A stretch of DNA of 64,000 nt. It comes from Dehalococcoidia bacterium (lineage in GTDB: Bacteria; Chloroflexota; Dehalococcoidia; Lucifugimonadales; UBA3495). The DNA lies in contig OZ244811.1 of the NCBI GenBank assembly GCA_965220105.1, positions 1,465,046 to 1,529,045 on the forward strand, in the 5' to 3' direction. The translations under genes and the position numbers were made by a program. Shown here in pieces: positions 23,561 through 62,626 of this stretch. The notes below the pieces were generated by a model that did no database searches, was not told where the DNA came from, and worked only from the letters and a program-made list of their open reading frames with translations. Each line of letters opens with the position of its first letter. Within the stretch, counting starts at the first letter, position 1.

Positions 23561-23728
23561 CTCATGCGTACCCACTTTGTCATTGCGAGCGTAGCGTGGC
23601 AATCTCGTTGTCGTAGCAACGGCGGTTCGCCGATGTGTGTTCAACCTCATCGAGATTGCCACGTCCCTCGGCGAGCTCGGGATGAGTGGGGCTCCTCGCA
23701 ATGACAGATCAAAGTGGGTACGCGTGAG
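23561..23728. mobile_element. Shell-1 composite MITE-like element
   Basis: TIR CTCATGCGTACCCACTTT / CTCACGCGTACCCACTTT; flanking 10-mers GGTTTACGTC and GGTTTACCTC (9/10); about 95% identical to 49311-49479. Confidence 0.88.
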
Positions 23729-23822
23729 GGTTTACCTCTCCTTGTCTGCCGCGGCCCGGGCGTTTAGAATTTGGCATTGAGCCAAGTTGGGTAACCTGAA
23801 ATTAATCGGCAGGAGCGTACGA

Positions 23823-24887
23823 ATGGATGTTGGAATGATGATGATCTTCTCGAGTTACGGCTGGGAAGAAGGCTCGGACGGCCAGATGTGGGAGGAGGAG
23901 CTGCGCCTCGCAGAAATCGCTGCCGATGCAGGCTTCGATTGCCTGTGGTCTGCGGAACATCATTTCAACGATTATTCCTTCGTACCCGACAACATCCAGT
24001 TGATGACCCACATTGCGGCGAAGCATCCGAACATCGACGTGGGGACAGCCGCCGTGATCCTGCCCTGGCATGACCCGTTGCGAGTGGCGGAAAATGCCGC
24101 CGTCCTCGACTTGTTGAGCAATGGCCGCTTGCGACTCGGGTTCGGGCGAGGCCTGGCACGGCGTGAATTCGAAATGTTCGGCATTAGCATGGATGAATCG
24201 CGAGAACGTTTTGACGAAGCGGCGCCGATGATAGTCGAGGCCCTCAGGACGGGGTTCATAGAGGGCGACGGGACGTTCTACCAGCAGTCTCGCACGGAAA
24301 TCCGCCCCCGCCCCCAGCATTCCTTCGACGGCCGTATCTACGCGGTCGCCGCCAGCGAAGAATCGGTCCTCTCGGCGGCCAAGCTCGGCGCGCACATCAT
24401 CATGTTCGCCGACCGCCCCTGGGAGATGCGGATGCCCGGGATCGAACGTGGCCGAGCCCTGCACCGCGAATTTCACGGCACAGAGCCGCCAGCCCTGATG
24501 CTCTCGGAATTCGTCGTCTGCGGCCCTGACAATGCCCAATGCGAGGCAGAAGCGCGCCAATATCAAGGCAAATTTGTCGAGAGCAATTTTTACCACTATG
24601 AATTTCTCGGGGATCATTTCCGGTCTGTGAAGGGTTACGACGCCTATCAACAGAAGGCGGAGATCGCGCGTTCCGCCGGCCTCGAAGGTGCTATCGACGG
24701 TTTCATGCGAGCGGCCAGCTGGGGCACGCCTGACCGCATTCTCAGGGGGCTTGAAGAACGCCGCGCGCTGCTGGGCGATTTCGAGCTGAACGTCGCCTTC
24801 CGCTTTGGCGGCACGCCGTTCCACATCGCGGAACGGGGCCTGAAGCTCTTCGCCGAAGAAGTTCTACCAGTCCTGAAGTCCTGGTAG
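23823..24887 (+). CDS. Luciferase-like (LLM class) flavin-dependent monooxygenase
   Basis: WSAEHHF, GTAAVILPWHDPLRVAE, GRLRLGFGRG; AGGAG RBS before ATG 23823. Confidence 0.92.
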   Translation: MDVGMMMIFSSYGWEEGSDGQMWEEELRLAEIAADAGFDCLWSAEHHFNDYSFVPDNIQLMTHIAAKHPNIDVGTAAVILPWHDPLRVAENAAVLDLLSNGRLRLGFGRGLARREFEMFGISMDESRERFDEAAPMIVEALRTGFIEGDGTFYQQSRTEIRPRPQHSFDGRIYAVAASEESVLSAAKLGAHIIMFADRPWEMRMPGIERGRALHREFHGTEPPALMLSEFVVCGPDNAQCEAEARQYQGKFVESNFYHYEFLGDHFRSVKGYDAYQQKAEIARSAGLEGAIDGFMRAASWGTPDRILRGLEERRALLGDFELNVAFRFGGTPFHIAERGLKLFAEEVLPVLKSW

Positions 24888-24941
24888 CAACACCGGATTG
24901 TCTGACTCAGGGGATTGCGACACCGAGACTGGAGATCCGGC

Positions 24942-25937
24942 ATGCGATCAATTGACATCCACGCCCACATTACTCCTCAGTGCTTCTGGCGTGCCACCAG
25001 CGACGGCGGCAGCTGGCACGGATTGCGGCGGGAGCGCGACGGCCGGGGGCAGGAGCTGCTGGTATCGGGGCAGGAGAGGGGCCAACTCCCTCCCAAATCC
25101 AGTTGGACGCCGGAGCAGCGTCTGGCAGACATGGACTCGCTGGGCGTGGACGTTCACGTAATCTCTCCGTTTGCCGGGCTTTATAACTACCACTTGGACA
25201 CTGCCCTGGCCGTGGCCACGTCCCGTGAGACCAACGACGAGATCGGGCAAATGACCCAATCCTGGCCGGACCGTTTCGCCGGCCTGGCGACCCTACCCAT
25301 GCAGGACGTCGATGCCGCCGTAGCCGAACTGGATCGGGTAATGGTCCAGATGGGTTTCAAGGGCGCCGTTATCAACGACCATGTAAATGGCAGGTTGCTG
25401 GACGAATCGGAATTCCTGCCCTTCTGGCAAGCGGCAGAGCAATTGGGCGCGCTGATTCTGTTCCACCAGGGCGGCGACACGGTGGTCAGCCCGCGCATCC
25501 GTCGCTACCACCTTCCCAATACGATCGGGAACCTGGCGGACCGGACGTTGACCTTCGCGTCCCTGGTGATCGGCGGCGTGATGGACGCCTGTCCAGACCT
25601 GAAAATTTGCCTGTCTCATGGCGGCGGGTACGCCTGTTACGGCGCCGGCCGCATGGATCGAGGCTGGCACGGGCTGAGTGAGGAGGAAAGGCGGAGCATG
25701 GAGCCACCCACTTCCTACCTCTCCCGTTTTTACTACGACAGCATCGTCTACACCGAGTCGGCGCTGCGCTTCCTGATCGACGCGGTGGGAGTGGACCGGG
25801 TATTGTTCGGCACCGACTGGCCTTACGACATGGCGCAGGACTGGCCGGTTTCCTGGGTTTTGAGCCTGCCGGGCCTTACCGTCGAAGAGAAGGAAGCGAT
25901 CCTGTGGAAGAATGTGGAGCGCGTGCTGGGCCTGTAG
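24942..25937 (+). CDS. Amidohydrolase_2 (ACMSD-like decarboxylase/hydratase)
   Basis: IDIHAH, LSHGGG, YYDS and LFGTDWP motifs. Confidence 0.9.
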   Translation: MRSIDIHAHITPQCFWRATSDGGSWHGLRRERDGRGQELLVSGQERGQLPPKSSWTPEQRLADMDSLGVDVHVISPFAGLYNYHLDTALAVATSRETNDEIGQMTQSWPDRFAGLATLPMQDVDAAVAELDRVMVQMGFKGAVINDHVNGRLLDESEFLPFWQAAEQLGALILFHQGGDTVVSPRIRRYHLPNTIGNLADRTLTFASLVIGGVMDACPDLKICLSHGGGYACYGAGRMDRGWHGLSEEERRSMEPPTSYLSRFYYDSIVYTESALRFLIDAVGVDRVLFGTDWPYDMAQDWPVSWVLSLPGLTVEEKEAILWKNVERVLGL

Positions 25938-25976
25938 GCCCAGCACGCAGCTCAGGCGACTCTCCGGAGGCGAAAC

Positions 25977-26996
25977 TTGCGGAAGATAGACGTGCACGCC
26001 CACTACATCCCCGCCAGCGTCGTGGGCGCTGAGACTCGTGGCGAGGACTGGTACGGGCTGGTTTATTCGGAAAGACCCAGCCCAGGCTTCGACGATCCCA
26101 ACGGTCGCCGGGTGGTCATCAACAGTCCCAAGCTTCGATTTACGCCGGCCGAACGGTTGGCCGACATGGACGCCAGCGGCACCGACGTGCAGGTGGTATC
26201 GATCCACACCCCTTTCTTCGGCTACAGCTGGGATTCTGTTCAGACGCAGGAGATGGCTCGGGAAGTGAACGATGCGATCGCCGAGCTGGCCCGTCAGCAT
26301 CCCCAAAGGTTTGTCGGTATGGCAACGCTGCCAGCCCAGGACGTCGCCGCATCCATCGACGAGCTGGAGCGGGCGGTAAATGTGCTCGGACTGAAAGGCG
26401 CCGAGCTGGACGCGGTGGTGAACGGCGAGAATTGGGACGAACCGCACTTTCTGCCATTGTTCAAAGCCGCCGAGGAGTTGGGCGCCCTGCTCTTCTTCCA
26501 CCCGCAGCCCCAGGCCAACATCGTGGCGCTGGAACGGTCGCGCAAGTATTCGTTACCCAACAGCGTGGGCGTACCGCTGGAGGACGCCATGGTGGTGGCG
26601 ACACTGATCTTCGGGGGGATTTTGGAGGAGTGCCCTAACCTGAAGGCGTGCATCGCGCACGGGGGCGGCCCAGCCTGCTTCGGCATGGGCCGGATGGATC
26701 ACGGCTGGTGGGTACGCCCGGAAGCCCGGGGCAATATCACCAGACCGCCGAGCACCTACCAAAAGCAGTTGTACTACGACTTCCTCACCAGCAGCGAACC
26801 CGCCTTGAGGTTCCTCATCGACGCGGTGGGCGCCGACCGGGTGGTGATGGGCAGCGATTGGCCTTTCGTCGAATGGGACCCGTCTCCGGGTGGTTGGTTG
26901 GATGGCTTGCAAAGCCTTTCCCAGGAGGAAAAGGAAAAGATCGGTCACCGCAACCTGGAACAGTTGTTGGGGATTCAGGCGACTGATCCCGGTTGA
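25977..26996 (+). CDS. Amidohydrolase_2 (ACMSD-like), tandem paralogue
   Basis: IDVHAH, FFHP, IAHGGG and MGSDWP motifs; GGAGG RBS and TTG start. Confidence 0.9.
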   Translation: MRKIDVHAHYIPASVVGAETRGEDWYGLVYSERPSPGFDDPNGRRVVINSPKLRFTPAERLADMDASGTDVQVVSIHTPFFGYSWDSVQTQEMAREVNDAIAELARQHPQRFVGMATLPAQDVAASIDELERAVNVLGLKGAELDAVVNGENWDEPHFLPLFKAAEELGALLFFHPQPQANIVALERSRKYSLPNSVGVPLEDAMVVATLIFGGILEECPNLKACIAHGGGPACFGMGRMDHGWWVRPEARGNITRPPSTYQKQLYYDFLTSSEPALRFLIDAVGADRVVMGSDWPFVEWDPSPGGWLDGLQSLSQEEKEKIGHRNLEQLLGIQATDPG

Positions 26997-27155
26997 AATC
27001 GGCATTAGCGGATCGGATGGGTCTGCGGGCGGGAACATCCCGTGGTTGCCATTGCTCGCCCCGTCGCCAGTGAGCCGGCGGTCGCCCCCGTTACGCAGTG
27101 GCATGGCGCACGGCGCACGGCGCATTCACCGCCAAAGGGTTTTAGGAGGACACAC

Positions 27156-30100
27156 GTGTACAAGATCGGGATCGACGTTGGAGGCACCTTTACCGATTTC
27201 GTCGTAGCCGGCGAAGGGAAGCAGCCGCGTTTCTTCAAGACTCAGTCCACCACCGAGGACCCTTCCATCGGCGTGATGACCGGGTTGCAGGAAGCCGCAG
27301 CCGCCTACGGACTGTCTTTGGATCAGTTGCTCGGCGACACGGACCTGGTGATCCATGGGTCGACTGTAGCGACCAACACGCTGGTAGAACGCAAGGGGGC
27401 CAGGGTGGGCCTCATCACCACCGACGGCTTCCGTGACCTCCTGGAAATGCGCGAGGGGTTGAAAGAGGACCGGTACAACCTCAGGATGACCCCGGTCGAG
27501 CCGTTGGCGGCCCGTTACCTGCGCGTGGGCGTTCCGGAACGGGTTCGCGCCAACGGTTTGGTCGAACTCCCCCTGGACCAGGACGCTTTGGTCCGAAACC
27601 TGGAGTTCCTGGTCCAGGAGGGGGCCGACGCGTTGGCGGTCTGTTTCCTGTTTTCATACCTCAACCCCTCCCACGAACAGCAGGCCTGGGAAACCATTCA
27701 CCGCCGCTACCCGGACCTGTACACCTCCCTCTCGCACGAGGTAATTCCCCAGATCAAGGAATTCGACCGGCTGAGCACCACGGTAATCAACTCTTACGTG
27801 GGCCCGGTGTTCAGCCGTTATCTGCTGCATCTGAAGAACCGGTTCGAACCCTACCCCCAGTTGCAGGACGTGCTAATCATGCAGTCCAATGGCGGCGTGG
27901 CCCCGATAGACGACTCCAGCCGTATGGCAGTGCGGGCTATCCTGTCCGGCCCAGCGGGAGGGGTCAGCGCCGCCGCCCACATCGGGCAGTTGTTGGAGGA
28001 ATCCAAAGTCATCGCCTTCGACATGGGCGGTACCAGCACTGACATCTCCCTGATCGAAAACGGGACTCCCCACATCACCAACGAGAAGTTCGAGGCCGGG
28101 TGGAAGATCGCCGCCCCGATGATCGACATCCACACGCTGGGCGCTGGCGGGGGCAGTATCGCCAGGGTGGATGACGGAGGGATTCTCCATGTCGGCCCGG
28201 ACAGCGCCGGCGCTGAACCCGGCCCCGCCTGCTACGGCAGGGGAGGAGTGAATCCCACCGTAACCGACGCCAGCCTGGTGTTGGGCTATTTGGACGCGGC
28301 GAATTTCCTGGGCGGCCGGGCCAGTCTCGACTCCCGGGCCGCCGAGCGATCCCTGGCCGAGCACGTGGCCACACCCCTCAATCTGACCAATGTTGAGGCC
28401 GCCTACGGGGTGTTCAAGGTGGTCTGCACCACCATTGCCCAAGGCGTAAGACTGATGTCGGTGCAACGAGGTGTCGACCCGCGAGCATTTACCCTGCTGG
28501 GGTTCGGCGGCGCGTCGGGCCTTCACGCCGCAGAGGTTGCCCGTCAGTTGCAGGTGACGAAGGTGTACATACCTGCGTCGGCGCCGGTGTTGTCGGCCTA
28601 CGGCATGTTGAACACCGACATCAAATACGACTTTTCCCGTTCCTATCCCGTGAGCCTGGACCGGCTGAACCCGGGCGAACTCCGGTCGATCCTGGACGAA
28701 CTGGAGACCCAGGGACGGGATAAGCTCCGGGGCCAGGGCGTCGCTCCCGAAGCGGTGGAATTTTATTACTCTGCTGACATGCGGTACCTGGACCAAGTCT
28801 ACGAAGTCTCCGTGCCGCTACCAGATCCCACGCTGCCGGACTCGGTGTTTCTGTCCAGATGGACGTCCAATTTCCACCAGAGATACCAGGAGCTCTACTC
28901 CTATAGCCAACAGGACCAGGAGGTGCGGTTGGTCACTCTCCGGGTGACGGCAGTCGGCAAGCTCCCCAGGATGGCCCAGCTGGACCGGACGGAGGCTGAG
29001 AGTACCGCCAGCGCATCGGGCAGCCGCTGGATCTTTTTGGGTGAATGGCTACGGGCGCCAACCTATGCTACCGACTCCCTGCCCACTGGCACGGAGATCG
29101 CCGGCCCGGCGATTTTGGAGTCAGATTTCACTACCATCCTGGTATGTCCGGGAGATTACGCCACGGTCGATGCCATGGGCGGCATCGAGTTGCGCGTCAA
29201 CCAGGAAACCCCCGCGGGTGTCCCGAATGCGACGCCCGATTCCGTCGGTATGGAGGGTCCAGATGGCCTCGGGGAATACGATCCCATCACCATGGCGGTG
29301 GTGGAGCACCGGTTGGAATCCATCGCTCAGGAGATGACCGAGGCGATGCTGCGAACCGCCATGTCCCAGATCCTCAACTCCAGCCGAGACTTTTCCACCG
29401 CGATTCTGGACGGTGACTGTCAGCTGGTGGCCCAGGGCGAAGGGATACCGGTGCACATCAGCGCGCTCCCGGTGGCCGGCGCTGCCGTCCGGGACTACTT
29501 TGGGGAGGATGTCTCCGAAGGAGATCTGTTCATTCTGAACGACCCCTATTTCGGCGGCAGTCACCTGCCCGACATCACCATCATCCGGCCCATATTTCAC
29601 CAGGGACGGCTGCTGTTTTACGGGGTGAACCGAGCGCACCACAGCGACGTCGGGGGAGGCACCCACGGCGGTTACAATCCCGGCGCCAATGAGATATTTC
29701 AGGAGGGCCTTCGCATCCCTCCCCTGAAGCTCTATGACCAGGGCGTTCCCAGGCACGACCTGCTCCAAATGCTGTCAGCAAACGTCCGGCAATCGGAGAA
29801 TTTCCTGGGCGACCTCAACGCGCAGATAGGCTCGGTGATGTTGGCCGCCCAGAGGATCGAAGCGCTGCTGGCCGACTACGGCGCCGACCGGTTGATGGCC
29901 GTCGTAGCCGGAATCCTGGACGCCACCGAGAGCCAGGTGCGGCAGTTCATCTCCGAGTGGCCCGACGGCGTGTACTACGGGGAGTCGTTGGTCGACGATG
30001 ACGGGTTCGACAGCAAGCTGGTGCCCATCAGGGCGAAAGTAACTATTGCCGACGACTCCATGACCATCGATCTCTCCGAGTCTAGTCCTCAAGTCGAAGG

Positions 30101-30911
30101 GTTCATCAACAGCGCTTACGCCAACACCCGGTCCCTGGCCCACGCTGCCATTATGTACCTGGCGCCGATGGATGTGGCCCGCAACGAGGGTTCCATGCGG
30201 CCCGTCCAGATAATCGCCCCCAGGGGACTCGTCGTCAACGCCAATCCTCCCGCGCCGGTGTGCATGAGTACCAACCACTGCGCCGAAGAGGTGGTGGAGG
30301 CGGTGTTCAAGGCATTGGCTCCCGCCATCCCAAGCTCGGTCTCTGCCGGGTTTTCCCGCCGGCTCCGCTACGCAATCACCGGGATCGACCCGAGGTCTGG
30401 GCGACGCTTCATCTGGCACTTCTTCCTGGCCAGAGGCGGTGGCGGAGCCTCCGACGGCTACGACGGTTGGTCCAACGTCGGTGAGGTTAACGTGGCCGGA
30501 GGCATACGGTCGCCCAGCATCGAGGTGACCGAAGAGCGGTTTCCATTCTTCATCAAGCGCCACGAGTTTCGGCCCGACTCGGGAGGAGTCGGCGCGTGGC
30601 GCGGCGGCCTCGGAGCAGTGTGCGACCTGATCTACGAAGGGGAAGGTCCAGCCCTGCTCAACACGGCGGGCGACGGCGTGGTAGTGCCACCCTTCGGGCT
30701 GTTCGGCGCAACCGATGGTTTGCCGCACCACTACACGATCGTTTCCAACGGCGCGGAACGGGTGTTGGGGTCGAAAGAGGTGGGGGTCGTCGTCAATCCC
30801 GGAGACCACATCATCTGCCTCTCCTCCGGCGGCGGCGGTTACGGTCGCCTGGAAGACCGGGATAAAGAGGCATTAACGTGGGACCTGAAAAACGGATATG
30901 TGACTGAGTGA
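27156..30911 (+). CDS. Fused hydantoinase A/B - ATP-dependent 5-oxoprolinase family protein
   Basis: GIDVGGTFTD, TVATN, DMGGTSTD, SRDFSTA, LNDPYFGGSHLPD, HHSDVGG, GGGGYG. GTG start at 27156 after AGGAGG. Confidence 0.93.
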   Translation: MYKIGIDVGGTFTDFVVAGEGKQPRFFKTQSTTEDPSIGVMTGLQEAAAAYGLSLDQLLGDTDLVIHGSTVATNTLVERKGARVGLITTDGFRDLLEMREGLKEDRYNLRMTPVEPLAARYLRVGVPERVRANGLVELPLDQDALVRNLEFLVQEGADALAVCFLFSYLNPSHEQQAWETIHRRYPDLYTSLSHEVIPQIKEFDRLSTTVINSYVGPVFSRYLLHLKNRFEPYPQLQDVLIMQSNGGVAPIDDSSRMAVRAILSGPAGGVSAAAHIGQLLEESKVIAFDMGGTSTDISLIENGTPHITNEKFEAGWKIAAPMIDIHTLGAGGGSIARVDDGGILHVGPDSAGAEPGPACYGRGGVNPTVTDASLVLGYLDAANFLGGRASLDSRAAERSLAEHVATPLNLTNVEAAYGVFKVVCTTIAQGVRLMSVQRGVDPRAFTLLGFGGASGLHAAEVARQLQVTKVYIPASAPVLSAYGMLNTDIKYDFSRSYPVSLDRLNPGELRSILDELETQGRDKLRGQGVAPEAVEFYYSADMRYLDQVYEVSVPLPDPTLPDSVFLSRWTSNFHQRYQELYSYSQQDQEVRLVTLRVTAVGKLPRMAQLDRTEAESTASASGSRWIFLGEWLRAPTYATDSLPTGTEIAGPAILESDFTTILVCPGDYATVDAMGGIELRVNQETPAGVPNATPDSVGMEGPDGLGEYDPITMAVVEHRLESIAQEMTEAMLRTAMSQILNSSRDFSTAILDGDCQLVAQGEGIPVHISALPVAGAAVRDYFGEDVSEGDLFILNDPYFGGSHLPDITIIRPIFHQGRLLFYGVNRAHHSDVGGGTHGGYNPGANEIFQEGLRIPPLKLYDQGVPRHDLLQMLSANVRQSENFLGDLNAQIGSVMLAAQRIEALLADYGADRLMAVVAGILDATESQVRQFISEWPDGVYYGESLVDDDGFDSKLVPIRAKVTIADDSMTIDLSESSPQVEGFINSAYANTRSLAHAAIMYLAPMDVARNEGSMRPVQIIAPRGLVVNANPPAPVCMSTNHCAEEVVEAVFKALAPAIPSSVSAGFSRRLRYAITGIDPRSGRRFIWHFFLARGGGGASDGYDGWSNVGEVNVAGGIRSPSIEVTEERFPFFIKRHEFRPDSGGVGAWRGGLGAVCDLIYEGEGPALLNTAGDGVVVPPFGLFGATDGLPHHYTIVSNGAERVLGSKEVGVVVNPGDHIICLSSGGGGYGRLEDRDKEALTWDLKNGYVTE

Positions 30912-30924
30912 GGAAGGAGAACGG

Positions 30925-31072
30925 CTCGCGCGTACCCCTTTTAATCTGTCATTGCGAGCGTAGCGTGGCAATCTCGTCGTCGTAGCAACGGCGGTTCGCC
31001 GACGTGTGTTCAACCTCATCGAGATTGCCACGTCGCTGTGCTCCTCGCAATGACAAAGTGAGTACGCATGAG
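30925..31072. mobile_element. Shell-1 composite MITE-like element with inverted core
   Basis: Perfect 10-bp flanking direct repeat AGGAGAACGG (30915-30924 / 31073-31082); ends CTCGCGCGTACCCCTTT and AAAGTGAGTACGCATGAG; lies between convergent genes. Confidence 0.9.
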
Positions 31073-31090
31073 AGGAGAACGGCGGTTGAC

Positions 31091-31873
31091 CTACTCCTCC
31101 GCCACCACGTAGTTCCTGAGCGTGCCGATACCGCTGACCTCCACCTCGATGGTGTCTCCGGGGAACATGTCCCCGTCGGCTCCCTCGGTCCCCATCCACA
31201 GGACGTCGCCAGGGTACAGAGTGGCATAGTTGCTGAGTTCGTGAATCCAGGTGGCGGTGTCCCAGATCTGGTCGGCAGACGAGAAGTCCTCCCACACCTC
31301 ACCGTTGTGGCGCACGATGATGCGGAACCCCTTGGGGTCGAGATCGGTGACGATCCAGGGGCCCATGGGCTTCCAGGTATCGCAATTTTTGCCCCGGAAC
31401 ATGGTGCGGTCGGCCTGCTGCCAGGGCCGCTGGCTGATATCGTTGCCTATGGTATAACCGAAGACGTAGTCCAGGGCTTCGCTTACCGGCACGTTGCGGG
31501 CTTTCTTGCCTATAACCACCGCCAGTTGACCTTCCGGCTGGACCGCGCCGGAGGACTCGCCAGGAACGACAATGTTTTCTTCCGTACCGATGACGGCGTG
31601 GACTGATCGATAGTTGGGTGAGGGGCGGTCCGGATATGCGGGAGGCGCTCCTCGTCGCGCGGCCATACCTTCCACGTGTCCCCGGTAGTTGGGTCCGGCG
31701 GCGTACAGCATCGGGGGCCTGATGGGCGCCAGCAGCTTCACCCGGTCCAGGGCATAAGAATGGTTGGTGACGGCATAGTCTTCCAGCGGATTGCCCCACA
31801 CCTCGGTCACGTTGTTGCCTTCCACGATGCCAAAACTGGTCTTTTCGTCTATTTGAAAGCGGCACCAAATCAT
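31091..31873 (-). CDS. Fumarylacetoacetate hydrolase family protein
   Basis: AAGPNY, VQPEGQLAVVIGK, GYTIGNDIS, GKNCDTWKPMGPWI, GDVLWMGT. Confidence 0.9.
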   Translation of the reverse strand: MIWCRFQIDEKTSFGIVEGNNVTEVWGNPLEDYAVTNHSYALDRVKLLAPIRPPMLYAAGPNYRGHVEGMAARRGAPPAYPDRPSPNYRSVHAVIGTEENIVVPGESSGAVQPEGQLAVVIGKKARNVPVSEALDYVFGYTIGNDISQRPWQQADRTMFRGKNCDTWKPMGPWIVTDLDPKGFRIIVRHNGEVWEDFSSADQIWDTATWIHELSNYATLYPGDVLWMGTEGADGDMFPGDTIEVEVSGIGTLRNYVVAEE

Positions 31874-31905
31874 GGGTCATCTCCTTTTGAGACCGTCTTT
31901 TGAGG

Positions 31906-32871
31906 CTATTCGGGCGTCACCAACGATTCAGCTTCTGCACCGGAGAGCACCCGCAGGATGTTGGCGCAAGCGAAGGTGGCCGCCCGCAGCGCCGTTTCTC
32001 CGCTTTGGCCAGCCATGTGCGGTGTTATGACCACGTTGTCCAGGTCGAATAGAGGGTTGTCCGCCGGCGTTGGCTCTACCTCAAGAACGTCCAATCCCGC
32101 CCCGGCAATCTTCCCTTCCGTGAGAGCCCGATAGAGTGCTGCCTCGTCCACCACCGGACCCCGGCACGCGTTGATCAAGAAAGCCGTTGGCTTCATCATC
32201 TCAAACTCGCGGTCGGACATCATCCCCCTGGTGCGTCGGGTCAAAGGCACGTGGAGGCTGACGATGTCGGAGGACTCCAACAGTTCGTCAAAAGGCCCCG
32301 GTTTGGCCTTGAGTTCCCGCTGGATGTCCTGCGGGATATCGATGACGTCGTGGTAAATCGTCCGGGTGTCGAACCCGGTGAGTCTCTTGGCGACGTGCTT
32401 GCCAATGCGCCCGAGTCCGACGATACCCACCGTCTTGTCGGTGAGCTCCGATAATTCGGTCTGATAAAGGGCGCCGCGCCATTGACGTTGCCGGGTGGTG
32501 CTGTCCCATTGAGCCATCAGGTTCCTGGCGATGCTTATCATCAAGGCAATGGTTTGCTCAGAAACCGAGATGGCGTTGGCTCCGCCGTTGTTCGCTACCG
32601 GAATGCCCATCTCCAGGATGGTCTCCAGATCCAACCGGTCGTAACCCGCGCTGAGAGTCTGGATCAATTTCACGTTGGGGCATTCCTTCAGTACGTTGAC
32701 CGAGATGTCGCTGGATATGATGGCGTCGGCTTCGCGGCATAGATCGATTTTTTCCGCCTCCGATAAAGCGGCGTCCACAACCGTAACCTCCAAGTCGTCG
32801 GGGGCCTGGGCCAGCATCACCTCGGCACGTCCTCCCACTCCGCTGAAATAAGCAACTTTCCAAGAGGGCAT
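31906..32871 (-). CDS. D-isomer-specific 2-hydroxyacid dehydrogenase
   Basis: SAGYDRLD, GIVGLGRIG, SLHVPL, INACRG, AGLDV, ITPHMAG. Confidence 0.93.
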   Translation of the reverse strand: MPSWKVAYFSGVGGRAEVMLAQAPDDLEVTVVDAALSEAEKIDLCREADAIISSDISVNVLKECPNVKLIQTLSAGYDRLDLETILEMGIPVANNGGANAISVSEQTIALMISIARNLMAQWDSTTRQRQWRGALYQTELSELTDKTVGIVGLGRIGKHVAKRLTGFDTRTIYHDVIDIPQDIQRELKAKPGPFDELLESSDIVSLHVPLTRRTRGMMSDREFEMMKPTAFLINACRGPVVDEAALYRALTEGKIAGAGLDVLEVEPTPADNPLFDLDNVVITPHMAGQSGETALRAATFACANILRVLSGAEAESLVTPE

Positions 32872-41766: not shown

Positions 41767-41918
41767 CTTTAATCTGTCATTGCGAGGAGCACCCGCTCAT
41801 CCCGAGCTCGCCGAGGGACGTGGCAATCTCGATGAGGTTGCCACGTCGGCGAACCGCCGTTGCTACGACGACGAGATTGCCGCGCTACGCTCGCAATGAC
41901 AAAGTGGGGACGCATGAG
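41767..41918. mobile_element. Shell-1 composite element, reverse orientation, one end truncated
   Basis: Near reverse complement of 23561-23728 and 49311-49479; ends AAAGTGGGGACGCATGAG; left TIR mostly missing and no TSD. Confidence 0.85.
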
Positions 41919-46478: not shown

Positions 46479-46620
46479 CAGGGCCTTGCGACTATCCCCC
46501 TAATGTCATTGCGAGGAGCGAAGCGACGTGGCAATCTCGCTCATCCTGAGCCTGTCGAAGGACGCCAACGAGATTGCCACGCTGCGCTCGCAATGACATT
46601 GCCGATAACTGAAAGACCCT
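46479..46620. mobile_element. Shell-2 MITE-like element carrying the cargo-a doublet
   Basis: Ends CAGGGCCTTGCGACTAT / ATAACTGAAAGACCCT; perfect 9-bp flanking repeat ACTCGTTCA (46470-46478 / 46621-46629); core AATGTCATTGCGAG...CTCGCAATGACATT. Confidence 0.85.
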
Positions 46621-46645
46621 ACTCGTTCAGCATATCTGAGACGCA

Positions 46646-49310: not shown

Positions 49311-49479
49311 CTCATGCGTACCCACTTTGTCATTGCGAGCGTAGCGTGGCAATCTCGTCGTCGTAGCAACGGCGGTGCGCCGACGTGCGTTCAACCTCAT
49401 CGAGATTGCCACGTCCCTCGGCGAGCTCGGGATGAGCGGGCGCTCCTCGCAATGACGGATTAAAGTGGGTAAGCGTGAG
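49311..49479. mobile_element. Shell-1 composite MITE-like element
   Basis: TIR CTCATGCGTACCCACTTT / AAAGTGGGTAAGCGTGAG; flanks AGAACCGGTG and GGAACCGGTG (9/10); lies between convergent permease genes. Confidence 0.9.
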
Positions 49480-54970: not shown

Positions 54971-55552
54971 AGATGGACGGACTCCTTGGCCTGGAGAGGT
55001 AAAATGGCATTCAGCGCGGGATTCTAAAGTGCGGCAATTGCCGGCCCGCCGCTGTGAAAACGTCGGTGCGCCATTCGAGCGCGCCACCATTGTAACAGCC
55101 CTGCCCGGCCCGCATATCGACCTGGTCGGGCACAGCGGGCTAATTCTGGCAGTACCGGTCACCACCCCGCCATCCACGCCGCGGGCCACCTCGAGAACCA
55201 CATTCGCCAACTATCTCAAGTCCCCGTTGGAGAGTCCGCCAGAACTCAAAACGTGGGTTTCTGGTACTGACTACGTGGGGGCCAAAGCAGACCTTATTGA
55301 GAATTTTGGCTGGGAGATGGCGCTGCCCAACGCATGAACTCCCGTATTTACGGCAGAAGACAAATGGTGCGGCGTCCCCTGCCCTCAAAGTCACGCATTA
55401 GTTTGTCGCGGTCTCCGATGGCGCAGTCAGGATCATGGGCAACGAAGAGAGTGTGCGCTGCCCGAGGATTCTGGCCAAGGCCCCCCAGGACTCAACGCCA
55501 TGAAGGATTAATTGAAAATTCTGCACGCCATCCACGGCTAAGCTGCTTCACC

Positions 55553-55725
55553 GAGATTGCCACGTCGCTACGCTCCTCGCAATGACAGACGGGGCGCACG
55601 ACTTGATATGTCATTGCGAGCGTAGCGTGGCAATCTCGCTCATCCTGAGCCTGTCGAAGGACGCCAACGCAGCAATCTTGGCTACGGGAACGAGGTCTCC
55701 ACGTCGCTCCGTTCCTCGCGATGAC
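55553..55725. repeat. Cluster of three cargo-a arms with an embedded cargo-b half
   Basis: GAGATTGCCACGTCGCTACGCTCCTCGCAATGAC; TGTCATTGCGAGCGTAGCGTGGCAATCTC followed by GCTCATCCTGAGCCTGTCGAAGGA; GAGGTCTCCACGTCGCTCCGTTCCTCGCGATGAC. Confidence 0.85.
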
Positions 55726-55817
55726 TTGAGCAGAAGAACCGAAAGGACCCAAGCACTGTTCCGCGAAGGGCGAGTTCATAGTGGCAGACGGATCCGATGT
55801 CGTCCGTGCCTGGCGGT

Positions 55818-57161
55818 TCAGCCTCTGCCCACCGCCGCCTGACCCAGCACACTCATCAACTGCCCCACATCGTCCAGACGCTCCAGGTTCTCCAGCATCC
55901 CCAGCACGCGCTCGGTGTCAGCTTCGGAAAGGGCGCGACGGAAGCAGTCGCGTATCTTTTCCAGGCGCTGATCCCGGGACATGGGATTGGCCACCGATCC
56001 GCTGAAGGCGGCGCATTCGGCGCTGACCGTAGTCCCGTCTTTGAGCAAAGCGGTGGCGAGCGTGGCGCCCGATGCGGGGCCTTCCGGTTCCACCCGGATG
56101 CGACCCAGCATTTCCTCCATGTCCGGAGAGAAGCGGCGGGCGTCGGTGAAGGTGTCGATACCCACCTGCCCGTCCAGCAGGGCGGCGGCGGCGCAGTATT
56201 CCACGCTGAACTTGCCGTCCAGGCCGCTGCGGGGCGCCGGCCCCGAATGGCCCCGTCCCCGGCGGTGAAGGGTCACCTGCTCGATGTCGTCGGGGTCAAG
56301 GCCGTTCTGCTCGCGTAGGTTTAGCGCCGCCTCGATGGCGTTCTGCATATAGACCTGGGCGGGGAACCGTTTGATGTCAAAACCCGGGTCGAGCAGCCGC
56401 CACGACGCCCCCAGGCCTCCGGTGGCCGTGTCCCAATTGAACTCGCCCCCGAACAGGGCCGCTGCAAAACCCACGGGCGATTCCAACGCCTCTTCGCTGG
56501 CGGTGTAGCCCATGCCGGCCAGGATGGCCGCCTCGGCGCCCATGCGGGCGGCGTTGCCCGGGTGGGTGGACTTGACCATGGTGCCCGTGTTGGCGGTGAG
56601 GCCGCCGGTGCGAGAGGCGGCAATGCCCAGGGCCATCAGGGTTTGCCCGGCGTCCTGGCCCAGGGTCTTGGCTGCTGCTGCCGCGCCCCCCAGGGGACCC
56701 ACCAGGCCCGGCGGATGATAGGCGGGAGCGGTGGCCGGCGCTGAAGCGGCCCGCAACCGCCCCTGGATTTCCCAGCCCAACACGTAGGCGGTGATGACTC
56801 GCTCACCTGAAGCGTGGTGGTGTTCCGCCAGCGCCAGGGCCGCCGGCAGACAGGATGAGGTGCCGTGGGTGGGCGGAAACCCCTGGATCTCGTAGTCCAG
56901 GCAGTGGCCGAAGACCCCGTTTGCGAAGGCGGCGGCCGGCGGGTTGGTCTGGTAGCCCCAACCTACCACCGAGGCCTGGGACGAGCCGCCGGCGTCCCGC
57001 ACGTAGCGGCCGATGATGTCGGCGAGTTCCTGGACCGAACCAGCGACCATGTTGGCCACCCCGTCCAGGATGGCGATTTTGGCCGCTTCCACCACCGGAG
57101 GCGGCAGGTTTTCAAAGTCGGTGTCGGCAATAAACTGGGCCAGGGTTCGGGTTGTGCTCAT
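55818..57161 (-). CDS. MmgE/PrpD family protein
   Basis: AILDGVANMVAGS, AAFANGVFGHCLDYE, KSTHPG and DGKFSVEY patterns. Confidence 0.88.
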   Translation of the reverse strand: MSTTRTLAQFIADTDFENLPPPVVEAAKIAILDGVANMVAGSVQELADIIGRYVRDAGGSSQASVVGWGYQTNPPAAAFANGVFGHCLDYEIQGFPPTHGTSSCLPAALALAEHHHASGERVITAYVLGWEIQGRLRAASAPATAPAYHPPGLVGPLGGAAAAAKTLGQDAGQTLMALGIAASRTGGLTANTGTMVKSTHPGNAARMGAEAAILAGMGYTASEEALESPVGFAAALFGGEFNWDTATGGLGASWRLLDPGFDIKRFPAQVYMQNAIEAALNLREQNGLDPDDIEQVTLHRRGRGHSGPAPRSGLDGKFSVEYCAAAALLDGQVGIDTFTDARRFSPDMEEMLGRIRVEPEGPASGATLATALLKDGTTVSAECAAFSGSVANPMSRDQRLEKIRDCFRRALSEADTERVLGMLENLERLDDVGQLMSVLGQAAVGRG

Positions 57162-57248
57162 GGATTACCTACCTCGCAGGTCGCCGGGATAACGTCAGGA
57201 TAGGTTATCACCCAGGGCATAGTGAAGCCACAGCAGCCCGCTGCGCCG

Positions 57249-57372
57249 CAGGACGATTGCAAAGTCCCTGGACACCCGCTCATGGTGAGCTTGTCGAACC
57301 ATCGGCGACCATCCTTCGACAGGCTCAGGACGAGCGGGTAGAGTCAACCCCGGTAACTTCGCAATCGTCCTG
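57249..57372. mobile_element. Shell-2-related MITE-like element carrying the cargo-b doublet
   Basis: 17-bp TIR CAGGACGATTGCAAAGT (16/17; 13/17 to the shell-2 end); 62-bp core differs from the reverse complement of the 34128-34189 core at about 3 positions. TSD not convincing. Confidence 0.8.
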
Positions 57373-57447
57373 GAGCGCCAGACGGAGGTTGCTCCAATAC
57401 ATGGGATGCGGGCTATAATGCCCCAAAACCAGTTTGGGGGTGTCCCT

Positions 57448-57858
57448 ATGGCTAAAATCAAACACATTGCCATCACCTGCGAGGACCCGGATGCGATGGC
57501 AAAGTTCTATAAGGAAGGCTTCGACCTCGTCGAGGTCGCGCGTAACGCCCGACAGATCCAACTCTCCGACGGCGACATCAACCTGACCATCCTCAAGTGG
57601 AAGACCGACGAGGACGCCGACGTCGGCCCCGATGGCGAGAACTACAGCGGTATCCACCACATCGGATTCCAGGTAGACAGCCTGGAGGATGCGGGAGCCA
57701 GGCTCCGGGAGATTCACGGAAAGGAAATTGTCCGACGTGAAGTAGCAGGGGACGGCGAACCCCGCCTGCCTCGCGCCGAGGAGAAGTGGTCTGGTCCCAA
57801 CGGGCAGGTCCTGGATATATCGGAGCCGGGATGGCTCCACAAATTGCCCATGGATTAG
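57448..57858 (+). CDS. VOC (glyoxalase/bleomycin resistance) family protein
   Basis: IKHIAI...AKFYKEGF...GIHHIGFQVDSLE...GPNGQVLDI. Confidence 0.85.
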   Translation: MAKIKHIAITCEDPDAMAKFYKEGFDLVEVARNARQIQLSDGDINLTILKWKTDEDADVGPDGENYSGIHHIGFQVDSLEDAGARLREIHGKEIVRREVAGDGEPRLPRAEEKWSGPNGQVLDISEPGWLHKLPMD

Positions 57859-57884
57859 CAAACTATCTGGGGGAGGGGAATGTT

Positions 57885-58331
57885 ATGGAAGCAACTTGCG
57901 TTACCCACATCGGAATCTGCGTAAGAGACATGGACCGGTCATTGGCTTTCTATCGGGACATACTGGGAATGACGGTGCTGGGCGACCGGATGACCGACCC
58001 GACCGAAGGGGGCCGACTGCACAACTATCGACGCCAGCGCCAGGCCCGCCGCTGGGTCAGCCTTGCCTACGGAGCTGGGGCCACACCTACGCTAACCCTC
58101 ACCAGCCATCCCGGCGATGAGCCCGATGGGGAACCAATCAAGCTGGACATGGTCGGCATCAGCCATATCTCCTTCGGAGTCGCCGACGTGAAGACGCTAA
58201 CCGAGGAACTGCTCAGCAAGGGCGTCGAACTGGCTGGCCCCATCGAGTCCTTTACTGGCCCCAATGGAGACATCCGCAGTATCTACGTCCACGACCCCGA
58301 CGGGATCCTGGTCCAGTTCAATACTCCGTAG
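57885..58331 (+). CDS. VOC family protein
   Basis: THIGICVRDMDRSLAFYRDILG...SHISFGV...YVHDPDGILVQF. Confidence 0.88.
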   Translation: MEATCVTHIGICVRDMDRSLAFYRDILGMTVLGDRMTDPTEGGRLHNYRRQRQARRWVSLAYGAGATPTLTLTSHPGDEPDGEPIKLDMVGISHISFGVADVKTLTEELLSKGVELAGPIESFTGPNGDIRSIYVHDPDGILVQFNTP

Positions 58332-58520
58332 AGAGAAATGCAAAACCACCCCACTGGTTCTTTGGCTTGGTTCATGGACCTAGCAGGAATCGTTGTTTCC
58401 ATACCGATGTAGAGAACGAACGTAAGCCGGACCGGTATTGAGCGCTAGCTTTTGCCACCCAACCATTTTGTTCCTCTTAGTCCGGCAAACTACTCGATTT
58501 CCTTTGAGAGGGCAACGGGC

Positions 58521-59048
58521 ATGAAAACGCAGACGGCGGTATTCCAAGACCCCATAGACAAGTTCGAACTTCTTATGGAGCGACTTCGGAAGTGCGGCCC
58601 CATAAGAATGGAAACCAGACGGGAACATAACTCCCTGCGGCAAGAAATCAAGCAGCGAGTCAGTTCCGAAAAGGGAATATACGTCTTTTATGAGGACGAA
58701 GTACCCCTGTACGTGGGAAGAACAGACCAGATGGCTGATAGGTTGCTTAACCACGGAAGGAAACCAAGTGCGGATGTGCCATCCTCCGCTACTTTTGCGC
58801 TGATACTTGCCAAGTATGAATTCAAGAAAATGTACTCGGTGCAACATAGCCTGTTTGGCAAGGAATTAGCCAGGGAGCTGAATGGCCATCACAGCATGAA
58901 GATGGAACTCTGGAAGGAAGCCGTAGAACGAGTGAGGCGGATGTCAACTCGGGTCGTCGAGGTCGAGCATCCCCACGAACAGGCTGTCTTCGAGGTCTAC
59001 GTCCATGAGAAGATGGAGACGCCGTTCAACAGTTTTGTGAACCACTAA
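58521..59048 (+). CDS. Stand-alone GIY-YIG nuclease domain protein
   Basis: KGIYVFYEDEVPLYVGRTDQMADRLLNH (GIY-x-YVG-R-H) and a late FE; DNA visibly more AT-rich than neighbours. Confidence 0.8.
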   Translation: MKTQTAVFQDPIDKFELLMERLRKCGPIRMETRREHNSLRQEIKQRVSSEKGIYVFYEDEVPLYVGRTDQMADRLLNHGRKPSADVPSSATFALILAKYEFKKMYSVQHSLFGKELARELNGHHSMKMELWKEAVERVRRMSTRVVEVEHPHEQAVFEVYVHEKMETPFNSFVNH

Positions 59049-59396
59049 GCATAGGAAGGACTCGACGCTGAGTCAGGTATTCTGGGCCATTTGCCCCTTT
59101 TTGCACTTATCTGACCGCAGTAGCCGATACGTCTTCCTGCGCCATTCATCGATATCCTTACCCAGGATAAAGCCCGTGGACAAATAGCGCAGACACCATG
59201 CCAGAGCAATGCGCCACAGGCTGGATTGCACACGACAATCATCATTGCCACGCTTTCACCACCAAAACGGCGTTGCAGCCGCGCTCAGTGCTTCCATCTC
59301 CGGCGTGTATAGGCGCGCCGGGCCGCCTAAGGCTGGTCGGCAAAGCGAAACGCCCGGGAAAAGTTTCCCGGGCGCGTGAAATGCCAGCCGGTTCCC

Positions 59397-60767
59397 CTAA
59401 ACCCGTATCACCCCCACCACATCCCCGTTCGCTTCCTCGATGGCAATCTCAGTGCCGAAGGGGCGGGAAACGTCCTGCAGCCACTGCAGGGTTTGGCGGG
59501 CGATGGGTTCTTCCGCCAGCACGGGGCGGCCTCGCTGGGGAATGGGACGGCCAAAGCCCATGTCGATGGGGTACAGGATAACCTCTCTCAGGTCGCCGCC
59601 GGCGTAGTTGCATACCGCCACCACGCTCTGCCAGAACACCGGGTCGGCGGCAAAGGCGCGGGTGCCGCCGCCGGAGCGGGTGTCCAGATAATCGCCGGGG
59701 GTGCTGTTGAAGTCCAGCCCGAAACGGCGGTAGGCCTCGTGGGGTAGCCACAGGACGCTTTCATTCTGGAAGATGAAGTTGCCCAGGCTGTAGAAAATGG
59801 GCCGATTCTTGTAAATCTCGATGCCCCGCAGGAAATGGGGGCCGTGACCTACGAAGGCGGCGCAGCCCTGGTCGATGGTCCAGCGGGCAAAGTCCACCAG
59901 GAAGTGGGGCGGCGACTGGCGGGAATGGCCGTGGAAGTCGCCCTCGGACCCGCTCTCGTGGCAGTGGACCCCATAGACCTGCCAGTCGGACTGCGTCTGC
60001 GCGCCCCGGATCCAGTTGCCGATGCCCAGCCGGTCATCCTCGTTCAGAGCGGTGCGGACGGCGAACTGTTCGTCCAAGATGAACTTGTGGTCCAGGAAAT
60101 CTATTTCGGAGCCGTGGTCCGTCGCATCATCGTCGCCCCGGAAGCCGAAGTGGCGATAGAAGGCGTGCTCCTCCTCGTACCCCAGCTCCAGGTTGGCCCG
60201 TTGCAGCGCGTCGAACACGTCCTGCTGCACGTGGTGGGTGATGTCGTGGCGCAGGGCGTTGACCCCCGGGCGACCGGCGAAATCGGGGCGGCCGGCGCCG
60301 GCCCGGGACTGCTCGCTGAAGGTGCTGGTGGCGCCCATCACTGCCACCCGGCCCCGGGCCGAGTCGACGTAAGTGGGAGAACGGGCCTCGTCCAGGTTGC
60401 GGCCGCCGCCGGCGTAAGCCAGGTCGATCTCCCGGCAGTGCTCCAGGGTAGTCAGGAAACCGCCCTCGGAAAAGTCGAAGGAGTGGTTGTTGGCGGCGGT
60501 CACGGCGTCGATGCCCATCCACTTCAGCTCATCCAGGTTGCGGGGGTCGGACCGGGTATAAGTGGCGCTGCTCCACTGCCAACTGCTCTCGTAGTCGTGG
60601 AACAACATCTCCAGGTTGACCAGGGACACGTCAGCTCCCCGAAGAACGTCCACCAGCTTGAGGAAACGGGGCTCCTGGAAGGCCTTCATCCGGCGGGTAA
60701 TCATGGCGTCGCCGCCTACGGCGATGGAAATATCGCGGCGCTCGGCGTCGTAAATCGTTGTGGTCAT
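59397..60767 (-). CDS. CapA-family metallophosphoesterase
   Basis: GDAMI, NLE, ANNHSFDF, GHGPHF and YSLGNF motifs. Confidence 0.88.
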   Translation of the reverse strand: MTTTIYDAERRDISIAVGGDAMITRRMKAFQEPRFLKLVDVLRGADVSLVNLEMLFHDYESSWQWSSATYTRSDPRNLDELKWMGIDAVTAANNHSFDFSEGGFLTTLEHCREIDLAYAGGGRNLDEARSPTYVDSARGRVAVMGATSTFSEQSRAGAGRPDFAGRPGVNALRHDITHHVQQDVFDALQRANLELGYEEEHAFYRHFGFRGDDDATDHGSEIDFLDHKFILDEQFAVRTALNEDDRLGIGNWIRGAQTQSDWQVYGVHCHESGSEGDFHGHSRQSPPHFLVDFARWTIDQGCAAFVGHGPHFLRGIEIYKNRPIFYSLGNFIFQNESVLWLPHEAYRRFGLDFNSTPGDYLDTRSGGGTRAFAADPVFWQSVVAVCNYAGGDLREVILYPIDMGFGRPIPQRGRPVLAEEPIARQTLQWLQDVSRPFGTEIAIEEANGDVVGVIRV

Positions 60768-61092
60768 GTCGCCTCCCTGTGGCATTGGGACAAGGGTGGG
60801 TCAAGTGCGGCCATTTTAGCAAATATGCAGTGGTGGATGATTGGCAGCCCGTGACCCGGGCAGAGCAGCCGCGTCTTATCCGAGGAGGACTTTGAGGCGA
60901 TGCCGTTCGGTTCTGGAGGATAATCCGCCACCTCGGATTCGCACCTGCTACCTCCCCCAGAAGTTTTCCTCTTTCCGGCCCCGGCGAGGTATATGACTGC
61001 TGGGTATATAAAAGGACCTGTTATCTTTTCTCGTTGCGTGATGAACACAGTGTTAGAATTACAGCCTATCCGGTTTTCAGAGGTTTGGCAGC

Positions 61093-61695
61093 ATGCATCC
61101 CAGCAAGTTCGGGGACACTTACGAGATGGCGAAGTTGTGCATGTTGGGCTGGCTCGCCCCCGATGAAGAATGGCTTATCCATCCCATGTACTTCCCCGCA
61201 AAAAGCGAAGCTCCAGATGAAACCTTCCCATGTTGGTACGCCGACTTTCTAGGGGTTCGCCTCGTGCGTGGGAACATTAAGCAGAGGCCGAAGCTCGTGG
61301 ATGCGGTTGCCGCAAACCCAGGTCGTCTCTTCCTCGACCCGGACACCGGCTTGCGACTGAACAAAGCGAAGCTGCGACAGTTCGTGAACGTCGAAGAGTT
61401 CATTGCAATTGCCCATTCCCCTGCCCGTGAACGAAAGCTCGTGCTGGTTTATGATCAAAGCATCAACTTTAACCACGGGGAGGCAGGAACTCCCAGACAG
61501 CAGGTTAGGAGGAAATTGTGCCGCGTGCATGATGCTAACGTCCACGCTGTTGCTTACGTTTCCCATATTGCTTTCATCTGGGCTTCCACAGAACCCGAAA
61601 TTGTGAGTGCCGCCACTCGACGGTTCTTGTTGGGGTCTCGTCTCCCGCTCTGGCGTCTCGTCGATGACGGGTGCGCCCATATACCACAGGCGTGA
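61093..61695 (+). CDS. Hypothetical protein (N-terminal FGDxY..K, central FLDPDTG, VYDQS motifs)
   Basis: 200-aa ORF with natural composition in a more AT-rich patch; no confident family. Confidence 0.65.
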   Translation: MHPSKFGDTYEMAKLCMLGWLAPDEEWLIHPMYFPAKSEAPDETFPCWYADFLGVRLVRGNIKQRPKLVDAVAANPGRLFLDPDTGLRLNKAKLRQFVNVEEFIAIAHSPARERKLVLVYDQSINFNHGEAGTPRQQVRRKLCRVHDANVHAVAYVSHIAFIWASTEPEIVSAATRRFLLGSRLPLWRLVDDGCAHIPQA

Positions 61696-61787
61696 GCAGT
61701 TAGGTGTCGAGTACCCATCCTCTTGCCACCAAATCATCCCCCCGAACCGAACTACACCTTTGAGGCCGTGTACATTCCACCATCCTC

Positions 61788-61896
61788 GGCCGATGCTACA
61801 ATAGTCCTCAAAGACCGACCCTGGTGAACAATCGAATTCCGGGCCGTCACTACCGCTCGGCGGTTACCGGGTGTTGGACCTGGCCGGAGCCATGGG
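61788..61896 (+). repeat. Duplicated promoter plus first codons of the CoA-transferase gene
   Basis: 109-110 bp direct repeat of 62621-62730 (roughly 88% identical); the ATG is lost (AAAGACC vs AAATGACC). Confidence 0.92.
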
Positions 61897-61942
61897 GCTT
61901 ACTATAGGGTGATCGGCAGTTACAGCACCGAGGGCAAAAATC

Positions 61943-62302
61943 ATGACGACCAAGATGGACTATCAAGCAGGCAGCAGAAGCATGATGACGCAGAGCCGCA
62001 TTGAGTTGGCCCAGGGCGATCTGCAACAGGCATCTGAGAAAGGTTGGGGCGCTGCCGCCCAGATGATGAAGGCGGTGGCCAATACGCGCGGCTGGGAACA
62101 TGGCCGACACCGGCACCTCCACCAGATCGCCAGTCGCCTCCGGGCTGAGAGGGGCGACCGAGACATTTACCGCCTGTTCGACACCGCGGGCGCCCTGCAC
62201 GAGAACTTCTACGAAAACCAGATGGCGGCTCAGGACATCTACGAGGCGCTGGACGACGTGGAACGCCTGCTGGACAAACTGGAAGCGATACTGTCGGGAT
62301 AA
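61943..62302 (+). CDS. PaREP1 family (HEPN-like) protein
   Basis: GDLQQASEKGWGAAAQMMKA...RGWEH...ALHENFYE pattern. Confidence 0.8.
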   Translation: MTTKMDYQAGSRSMMTQSRIELAQGDLQQASEKGWGAAAQMMKAVANTRGWEHGRHRHLHQIASRLRAERGDRDIYRLFDTAGALHENFYENQMAAQDIYEALDDVERLLDKLEAILSG

Positions 62303-62347
62303 TGGACCAGACACATGGCTATCTGTCAAGCAGATGTAACCTCTCAC

Positions 62348-62442
62348 CAGGGCCTTTTCAAAGTAATTGACCCCATCAAACTCCGCTCATGGTTGGACAC
62401 TCTCACCATCAGCGGACGTCCAGCGACCTTGAAAAGGCCCTG
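62348..62442. mobile_element. Shell-2 MITE-like element inserted into the left end of a shell-1 element
   Basis: TIR CAGGGCCTTTTCAAAGT / ACCTTGAAAAGGCCCTG (16/17); perfect 9-bp TSD ACCTCTCAC (62339-62347 / 62443-62451); decayed cargo-b core. Confidence 0.9.
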
Positions 62443-62446
62443 ACCT

Positions 62447-62583
62447 CTCACGCGTACCCAGTTTGTCATCGCGAGGAACGAAGCGACGTGGGGATCTCCG
62501 TGAGCGAGCGATAACGTCACCGACAACGAGATTGCCGCGCTTCGCTCGCAATGACGGTTTGATGCAAAGTGGTTACGCGTGAG
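62447..62583. mobile_element. Shell-1 composite element (original left end at 62343)
   Basis: CTCACGCGTACCCAGTT...AAAGTGGTTACGCGTGAG; reconstructed flanks GATGTAACCT (62333-62342) and GGTGGAACCT (62584-62593), 8/10. Confidence 0.85.
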
Positions 62584-62626
62584 GGTGGAACCTGAGGACA
62601 CAGCGTAATCTACCGCCGGTGGCCGA

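Follow-up and report, generated by a model that had tools for sequence, protein, structure and literature searches.

Shell-1, a family of small palindromic elements in a 64,000-nucleotide stretch of a Dehalococcoidia genome (contig OZ244811.1, positions 1,465,046 to 1,529,045; hereafter, the window), has several described counterparts. One is Nezha, a MITE (miniature inverted-repeat transposable element) of Anabaena and Nostoc for which ISNpu3 was proposed as the partner insertion sequence (IS) (Zhou et al. 2008, summarised in PMC3184786). Nezha as described there is like Shell-1 in having a length of about 130-170 bp, terminal inverted repeats (TIRs), direct repeats, a very stable fold and sites that are filled or empty in closely related species, and in both cases an IS whose TIR and direct repeat are those of the MITE was found only in another species (PMC3184786). 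The core of Nezha is anonymous sequence, whereas that of Shell-1 is a doublet of hairpins associated with an Ssn-like gene. Shell-1 also differs from Nezha in its host phylum, in its unrelated TIR and in its parent, an element of the IS4 family.

The IS4 family offers a second precedent. In the Bacillus cereus group, the ends of IS231 surround foreign, non-transposase DNA in MIC231, which is moved in trans. The IS231/MIC231 duplications of about 10-12 bp and the preference for dyad-symmetric targets are both shared with Shell-1. MIC231 is kilobase-sized and carries passenger genes, whereas Shell-1 is 137-169 bp long and non-coding, with one 1052-bp form, devoid of open reading frames (ORFs), in a congeneric species (G054). 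The IS231 transposase is one that we take to be only distantly related to that of the Shell-1 parent.

The Correia elements (CREE/NEMIS) of Neisseria are, like Shell-1, abundant MITEs with TIRs, in a genome that is also rich in Ssn-type hairpin repeats. They have a TA duplication and are separate from the dRS3/NTS repeats, and to our knowledge they have no parent. In Shell-1, by contrast, the hairpin repeats form the interior of the MITE. Ssn nucleases with their NTS/SRM hairpin repeats, in the layout SRM-ssnA-SRM, have been described in Neisseria (Chenal et al. 2025, PMC11893778). The arms of the Shell-1 core start with GTCATT and end with AATCTCG, and are alike at both flanks to NTS, which reads CGTCATTCC...GGAATCYRG; arrays of these arms on either side of a single-domain GIY-YIG gene of about 100 aa correspond to the SRM-ssnA-SRM layout (PMC11893778). 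A shell that is bounded by TIRs and makes target-site duplications (TSDs) around such repeats is not described in PMC11893778 and is a feature of Shell-1.

Shell-1 is a genuine, previously unnamed MITE that is now orphaned in the genome under study (G000), and we put at about 90% the probability that it owes its movement in trans to an unnamed IS of the IS4 family, 1183 bp long, and the DDE transposase of that IS. It belongs to a known and well documented kind of mobile DNA; its hairpin cargo is unusual. The genome consists of a single contig, 4.37 Mb long and with 62% G+C, in which the window spans G000:C1:1465046-1529045. The comparison drew on a genus set of 54 congeneric genomes or species, which are labelled G, with loci in them labelled L; the closest sampled species is G065.

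A search for the 18-bp end CTCACGCGTACCCACTTT, allowing up to three mismatches, gave 10 matches in the window, where 0.05 were expected from shuffled sequences, and 137 matches genome-wide. When two TIRs less than 400 bp apart were counted as one complete element, the latter resolved into 45 paired, complete elements and about 47 one-ended copies. The complete copies spanned 129-213 bp and clustered at two lengths, 148 bp in 16 of them and 169 bp in 13; the median pairwise identity within a size class was about 94%, and one pair was identical. The 10-bp flanks of the 45 pairs agreed at 7.04 of 10 positions in register, compared with about 2.7 out of register overall and 2.5-4.5 when one flank was slid by 1-3 bp, a strong excess of 10-bp flanking repeats in the genome-wide comparison that an earlier note on the window had proposed. 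The TSDs were perfect in 11 of the 45 elements and matched at 8 or more of the 10 positions in 25; clean 9-mers were few, and the sequence of the duplication was different for every copy. A 2-Mb portion of G054 reproduced the result: of 51 elements there, 12 had perfect 10-mer TSDs. The family in G000 is, in sum, small in size, multi-copy and bounded by TIRs, with a TSD of fixed length and variable sequence and no transposase between paired TIRs.

Direct reading located all six copies that the earlier note had reported in the window, four of them complete and two with the right end only. The complete 168-bp copy at 23561-23728, a member of the 169-bp type, has TIRs at 23561-23578 and 23711-23728 and a 9/10 TSD, GGTTTACGTC at 23551-23560 and GGTTTACCTC at 23729-23738; when folded as single-stranded DNA, this copy forms a rod hairpin of -54.6 kcal/mol (z -9.65). 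The 148-bp copy at 30925-31072, which also folds into a long rod as single-stranded DNA (z -6.3), lies between perfect (10/10) duplications, AGGAGAACGG and AGGAGAACGG, at 30915-30924 and 31073-31082. A third complete copy, of 169 bp at 49311-49479, is flanked by AGAACCGGTG and GGAACCGGTG (9/10) and shares 95% identity with the 23561 copy, in agreement with the earlier estimate of about 95%. The fourth, 137 bp long at 62447-62583, is older, is common to G065 and has a parent-like TIR variant, CCCAGTTT. Its flanks, GCCCTGACCT and GGTGGAACCT, had been scored as 8/10 and were 5/10 on recount, whereas the scores of the other three copies (10/10, 9/10 and 9/10) stood. The flanks of the G065 orthologue are likewise 5/10, and the flanking repeat of this copy is decayed.

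The one-ended copy at 41767-41918 has an intact core and right TIR (41901-41918) and a left TIR cut down to CTTT. The other, at 17171-17294, has only a right TIR (17277-17294, three mismatches), with another hairpin module in place of the usual left part. This copy adjoins the end (CTTTTTAAACAC, about 17152-17163) of an IS5-like element of 877 bp that occupies about 16287-17163 of the window and has the ends GTGTTTAAAAAG. Neither the window, as the note had said, nor the whole genome contains a transposase with Shell-1 ends. The Rfam scan of the window suggested in the note gave no match, and a full-text literature search on the core motif returned nothing relevant, only irrelevant primer matches.

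Sites in relatives were sought by joining flanks by script and searching the genus, after which the orthologous regions were read. Empty sites in the relatives are precise and contain the 10-bp target only once, the outcome that the note had proposed to look for. The copy at 3357682-3357829 lies between GTCCCGGCCC and GTCCCGGCGC in G000, and G065 has a single GTCCCGGCGC with the element absent. At the copy 4312937-4313084, whose TSD is GGCCTTCGCC, a single GGCCGTCGCC and no element were found in G065, G063, G068, G069 and G007. The window copy at 30925-31072 is present in G065 and G068 and absent from G063, G024 and G013, where one GAGAACGG is left. The description of the family as recently active holds in that some insertions are younger than the split from the closest sampled species, but it is relative, given the median identity of about 94%.

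The G065 orthologue of the 30925 copy (L022, G065:C1:3742400-3743500) has the same TSD, but its whole core is inverted and it has an extra 21-bp module compared with G000. Core inversion and a module difference at an orthologous site indicate that cores rearrange in place, which implies that the inverted arms flip or undergo gene conversion with each other in situ. As a separate observation, the target of the 4312937 copy reads GGCC[G/T]TCGCC and lies directly after a GC-rich hairpin.

A target preference emerged from 39 reconstructed MITE insertion sites, of which G000 contributed 25 and G054 the other 14. Counted from the end of the TSD, positions +4 to +8 were T (25/39), T (28/39), G (31/39), A or C, and C (26/39), and G-T-C-A-A was found upstream as a weaker mirror image, which gives the dyad-symmetric consensus GTCAA-N3-[N10]-N3-TTGAC. 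With a base background of about 19% T and 31% G, these counts are, by simple arithmetic, far above expectation. The TTG is also seen in empty sites and therefore belongs to the target and not to the element.

The parent was located by a GTDB-wide scan for TIRs with a base other than C at position 15, followed by a script that paired the ends. The long element with the same TIR, for which the note had recommended a search, proved to be a DDE-encoding IS of 1183 bp in congeneric species. This IS has a single ORF, of 360 aa, whose stop lies within the right TIR, and it has no hairpin core. Its left end in G005, G052 and G019, CTCACGCGTACCCACTTTGAG, is identical to the Shell-1 TIR at 18 of 18 positions. 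The TSD of the parent is a perfect 10 bp at L213, L283, L330, L331, L333 and L336 and 9 bp at L326, L329 and L332, the same mix of 10-bp and 9-bp duplications as in the MITE. Moreover, the parent copies are flanked by the same half-sites, and the common target provides a second, independent link between the MITE and the IS.

The transposase matched Pfam PF01609 (DDE_Tnp_1) with 52.6 bits (threshold 23) and the NCBIfam model NF033591, "IS4 family transposase", with 155.4 and 152.1 bits, a small margin over the cut-off of 152. As read from the sequence, YRKRMQPEQYFKDGK in the ORF fits the Y(2)R(3)E(6)K signature of IS4 around the catalytic E, and the duplications of 10 and 9 bp are within the range of the IS4 family, about 8-13 bp by subgroup. 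The curated model, the signature and the TSD length together place the parent in the IS4 family. Relatives of the transposase in a large protein collection were metagenomic only and unnamed.

Transposase matches were found in 30 of the 54 genomes. Intact parent copies are present in G061 (nine identical copies), G008, G052, G015, G005, G019, G016 and G043, a branch that is 68% identical occurs in G012, and pseudogenes occur in G065 and others. The same protein search gave no match in G000, G007, G013, G024 and G068, and when G000 was rechecked, the best tblastn hit had an E value of 0.29 and blastn also returned nothing. Since the parent is intact in several congeners and has left no trace in G000, the copies there, about 45 of them complete and 47 one-ended, are most likely stranded relics of past activity that are now immobile.

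Full copies of Shell-1 were found in several congeners. G007 has about 295 TIR matches and about 150 Shell-1 copies, and G054 has 122 exact TIR copies, in a variant with other cargo. Among 301 Dehalococcoidia genomes of 192 genera, the 15-mer of the TIR was confined to this genus save for one single match. Numerous 36-aa matches to transposase residues 325-360 are spread over many contigs of G048 and G019; these forms are possibly MITEs that keep about 108 bp, the last 36 codons, of the right end of the IS, and would then be true deletion derivatives. The 1052-bp element of G054 (L199:16136-17187; G054:C1:2936136-2937187) has Shell-1 ends and a perfect 10-bp duplication, GCCGTTGCTT. It is free of transposase and ORFs and consists of tandem 22-bp repeats and hairpin modules, indicating that Shell-1 ends are able to carry kilobase cargo.

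In the proposed mechanism, the transposase would bind the 18-19-bp TIRs, and the element would be excised and joined to a target cut with a stagger of 10 bp, or sometimes 9 bp. Repair of the gaps would yield the flanking duplication, and insertion would favor the dyad site described above. This cut-and-paste chemistry with staggered DDE cleavage is modeled on the established chemistry of the IS4 family.

The Shell-1 core itself is an inverted pair of hairpin arms, TGTCATTGCGAG...GTGGCAATCTCG, which the earlier note had called a REP-like doublet. This designation did not hold, as the core is not REP in the RAYT sense and its arms instead flank a GIY-YIG gene. Shell-1 also departs from REP/BIME sequences in making 10-bp TSDs and in being associated with a GIY-YIG gene and not a RAYT gene, although no dedicated RAYT search was made. 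The only small GIY-YIG (Ssn-like) gene of G000, at 899704-900021, encodes a single-domain protein of about 100 aa (PF01541, 52.6 bits), and arrays of exactly the Shell-1 core arms lie on both sides of it (region G000:C1:899204-900520). The arms do not fit the published SRM pattern, HGTCWYN(0-2)YYVSBRHN(0-5)WNVSBRGN(0-2)RNCYNB, whose 46 matches in the genome are other repeat types, and they are therefore named Ssn-like-associated hairpins here and not SRMs.

The approximately 593 arms in G000 form 189 inverted doublets, with Shell-1 ends on both sides of 41, on one side of 33 and on neither side of 115. Many of the doublets that lack Shell-1 ends carry those of Shell-2, a second MITE family with the same hairpin doublet and the ends CAGGGTCTTTCGATT..., of which G000 has 49 paired copies of 123-145 bp with duplications of 9-10 bp. 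One copy of Shell-2, a family whose ends read CAGGGTCTTTCGATTGTCCCCTAAT and CAGGGTCATTCGATTATCGGCAAT, is found in the window at 46479-46621. The Shell-2 ends resemble those of a resident, frameshifted element of the ISAs1 family (G000 324795-326147), and in G054 a different hairpin module is also enclosed by ISAs1-type ends. The same doublet is thus found inside at least two unrelated types of ends, IS4-type in Shell-1 and ISAs1-type in Shell-2, and a third is possible. That Ssn-type hairpin repeats have been recurrently recruited as MITE interiors is a tentative idea to which we give less than even odds. If selection and not accident is responsible, a rod-forming core that unites the ends could be a better substrate for a DDE transposase, and DDE transposons could be an unrecognised vehicle that brings Ssn-associated repeats to hundreds of copies.

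The small GIY-YIG nuclease might itself move Shell-1, with the 18-bp ends as the outer part of the hairpin system, because its gene, the sole one of its kind at 899704-900021, lies between repeats identical to the core arms, and 115 of the 189 doublets have spread without Shell-1 ends. However, the 10-bp duplication is tied to the TIR and not to the core, and fixed, staggered duplications are unexplained by a single-strand nuclease. Moreover, the same TIR, TSD and target motif occur in a DDE-encoding IS without the hairpin core, and the same core occurs inside ISAs1-type ends that give 9-10-bp TSDs, so that movement by the nuclease appears very improbable. Still less probable is that the copies did not arise by transposition but are palindromic modules, with a regulatory or terminator role, that recombination or gene conversion has spread. 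The very stable rod folds fit such modules, and the core inversion and module exchange between orthologous copies suggest recombination between copies, but recombination creates neither a distinct 10-bp duplication at each copy nor precise, single-copy empty sites in relatives.

The transposase could also have come from a different resident family with TSDs of 9-11 bp, either ISAs1 or the IS4-like CTGACAGGGGTAGG-ended element. Such cross-mobilisation is unlikely, though the least so of the three alternatives, since the ISAs1 elements of the genus leave TSDs of 9-10 bp and have MITEs of their own in which the same core is found, and the TSDs of the CTGACAGGGG element are 10-11 bp. The ends of these candidates (CAGGG..., CTGACAGGGG...) are, on the other hand, unlike the Shell-1 TIR, the CTGACAGGGG family is absent from G007 despite the roughly 150 Shell-1 copies there, and a perfectly matching parent IS exists. 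All three alternatives are contradicted by the footprint that goes with the TIR, by the empty sites and by the perfectly matching parent. The TSDs, empty sites and parent IS likewise support the proposal of the earlier note that Shell-1 is a non-autonomous family with DDE-type ends, moved in trans.

Several points nevertheless weigh against mobilisation by the 1183-bp IS. The whole case, transposition included, is comparative. The overlap between MITE and parent is only about 19 nt, too little to establish that the G000 form descends from the parent by internal deletion. G007 and G054 are rich in TIRs yet have no intact parent, so that the copy number of the MITE does not track the present-day transposase. 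Finally, the target of the 4312937 copy, with the same 10 bp, holds a different Shell-1 variant in G024 and G013 (L035 and L036). Different variants in G000 and in G024/G013, together with five empty species, require that a single target was hit repeatedly, or else loss combined with lineage sorting; the doubly used target could be a hot spot or a product of lineage sorting.

Shell-1 provides a complete worked case of an orphan bacterial MITE, with its ends, footprint, empty sites, target motif and a parent traced to sister species, and it defines an unnamed IS4-family IS from uncultured Dehalococcoidia whose preferred target is clearly palindromic. It can also be used as a genus-specific marker and as a source of presence/absence polymorphisms. 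The occurrence of Ssn-like hairpin cargo in several unrelated transposon ends bears on how such repeats reach hundreds of copies, a question raised for Ssn repeats in PMC11893778. The recurrence of Ssn-like-associated doublets inside MITEs with unrelated ends is perhaps the part that deserves follow-up.

Other candidates for the parent had been considered and rejected. No long element with the Shell-1 TIR was found in G000 when up to five mismatches and a spacing of up to 6 kb were allowed, with or without a TSD. The sole 2.3-kb TIR pair in G000 encloses an ordinary gene, and of the two "solo" TIR look-alikes, at 2594224 and 2136462, one was a match by chance and one a MITE that IS110/IS66 had disrupted. 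The IS4-like CTGACAGGGG family has the wrong ends across the genus and is missing from G007, and the ends of the ISAs1 elements of G054, G007 and G065 are all CAGGGC.... In G054, 2 Mb and all small contigs contained no parent, only the ORF-less 1052-bp composite.

The ends of the resident IS families were also compared, and none of the catalogued families has ends similar to Shell-1, in keeping with the earlier observation that the TIR matched none of the IS701, IS5 or IS630 ends. The duplications made by the resident families in G000 are 5 and 9 bp for IS701-type elements, 8 bp for IS256, 4 bp for IS1380, 8 bp for IS66, TA for IS630, 9 bp for ISAs1, 9 bp for the IS1182-like element and 11 bp for the IS4-like CTGACAGGGG element.

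A separate IS4-like family, represented by G000:C1:971296-972628 and L041-L067, is 1333 bp long, has the ends CTGACAGGGGTAGG and encodes a 431-aa transposase. Its duplications are mostly 11 bp, often in homopolymer runs of G or C, and 24-35 copies are present in G050 and G060. The IS1182-like element, of 3.28 kb with the ends GAGAAAATTGCG, has copies at G000:C1:2296095-2299376 and 3619767-3623049. The flanking duplications ACACCTCC and TGTGTTCCA are swapped between these two copies, a signature showing that recombination of one with the other inverted 1.3 Mb.

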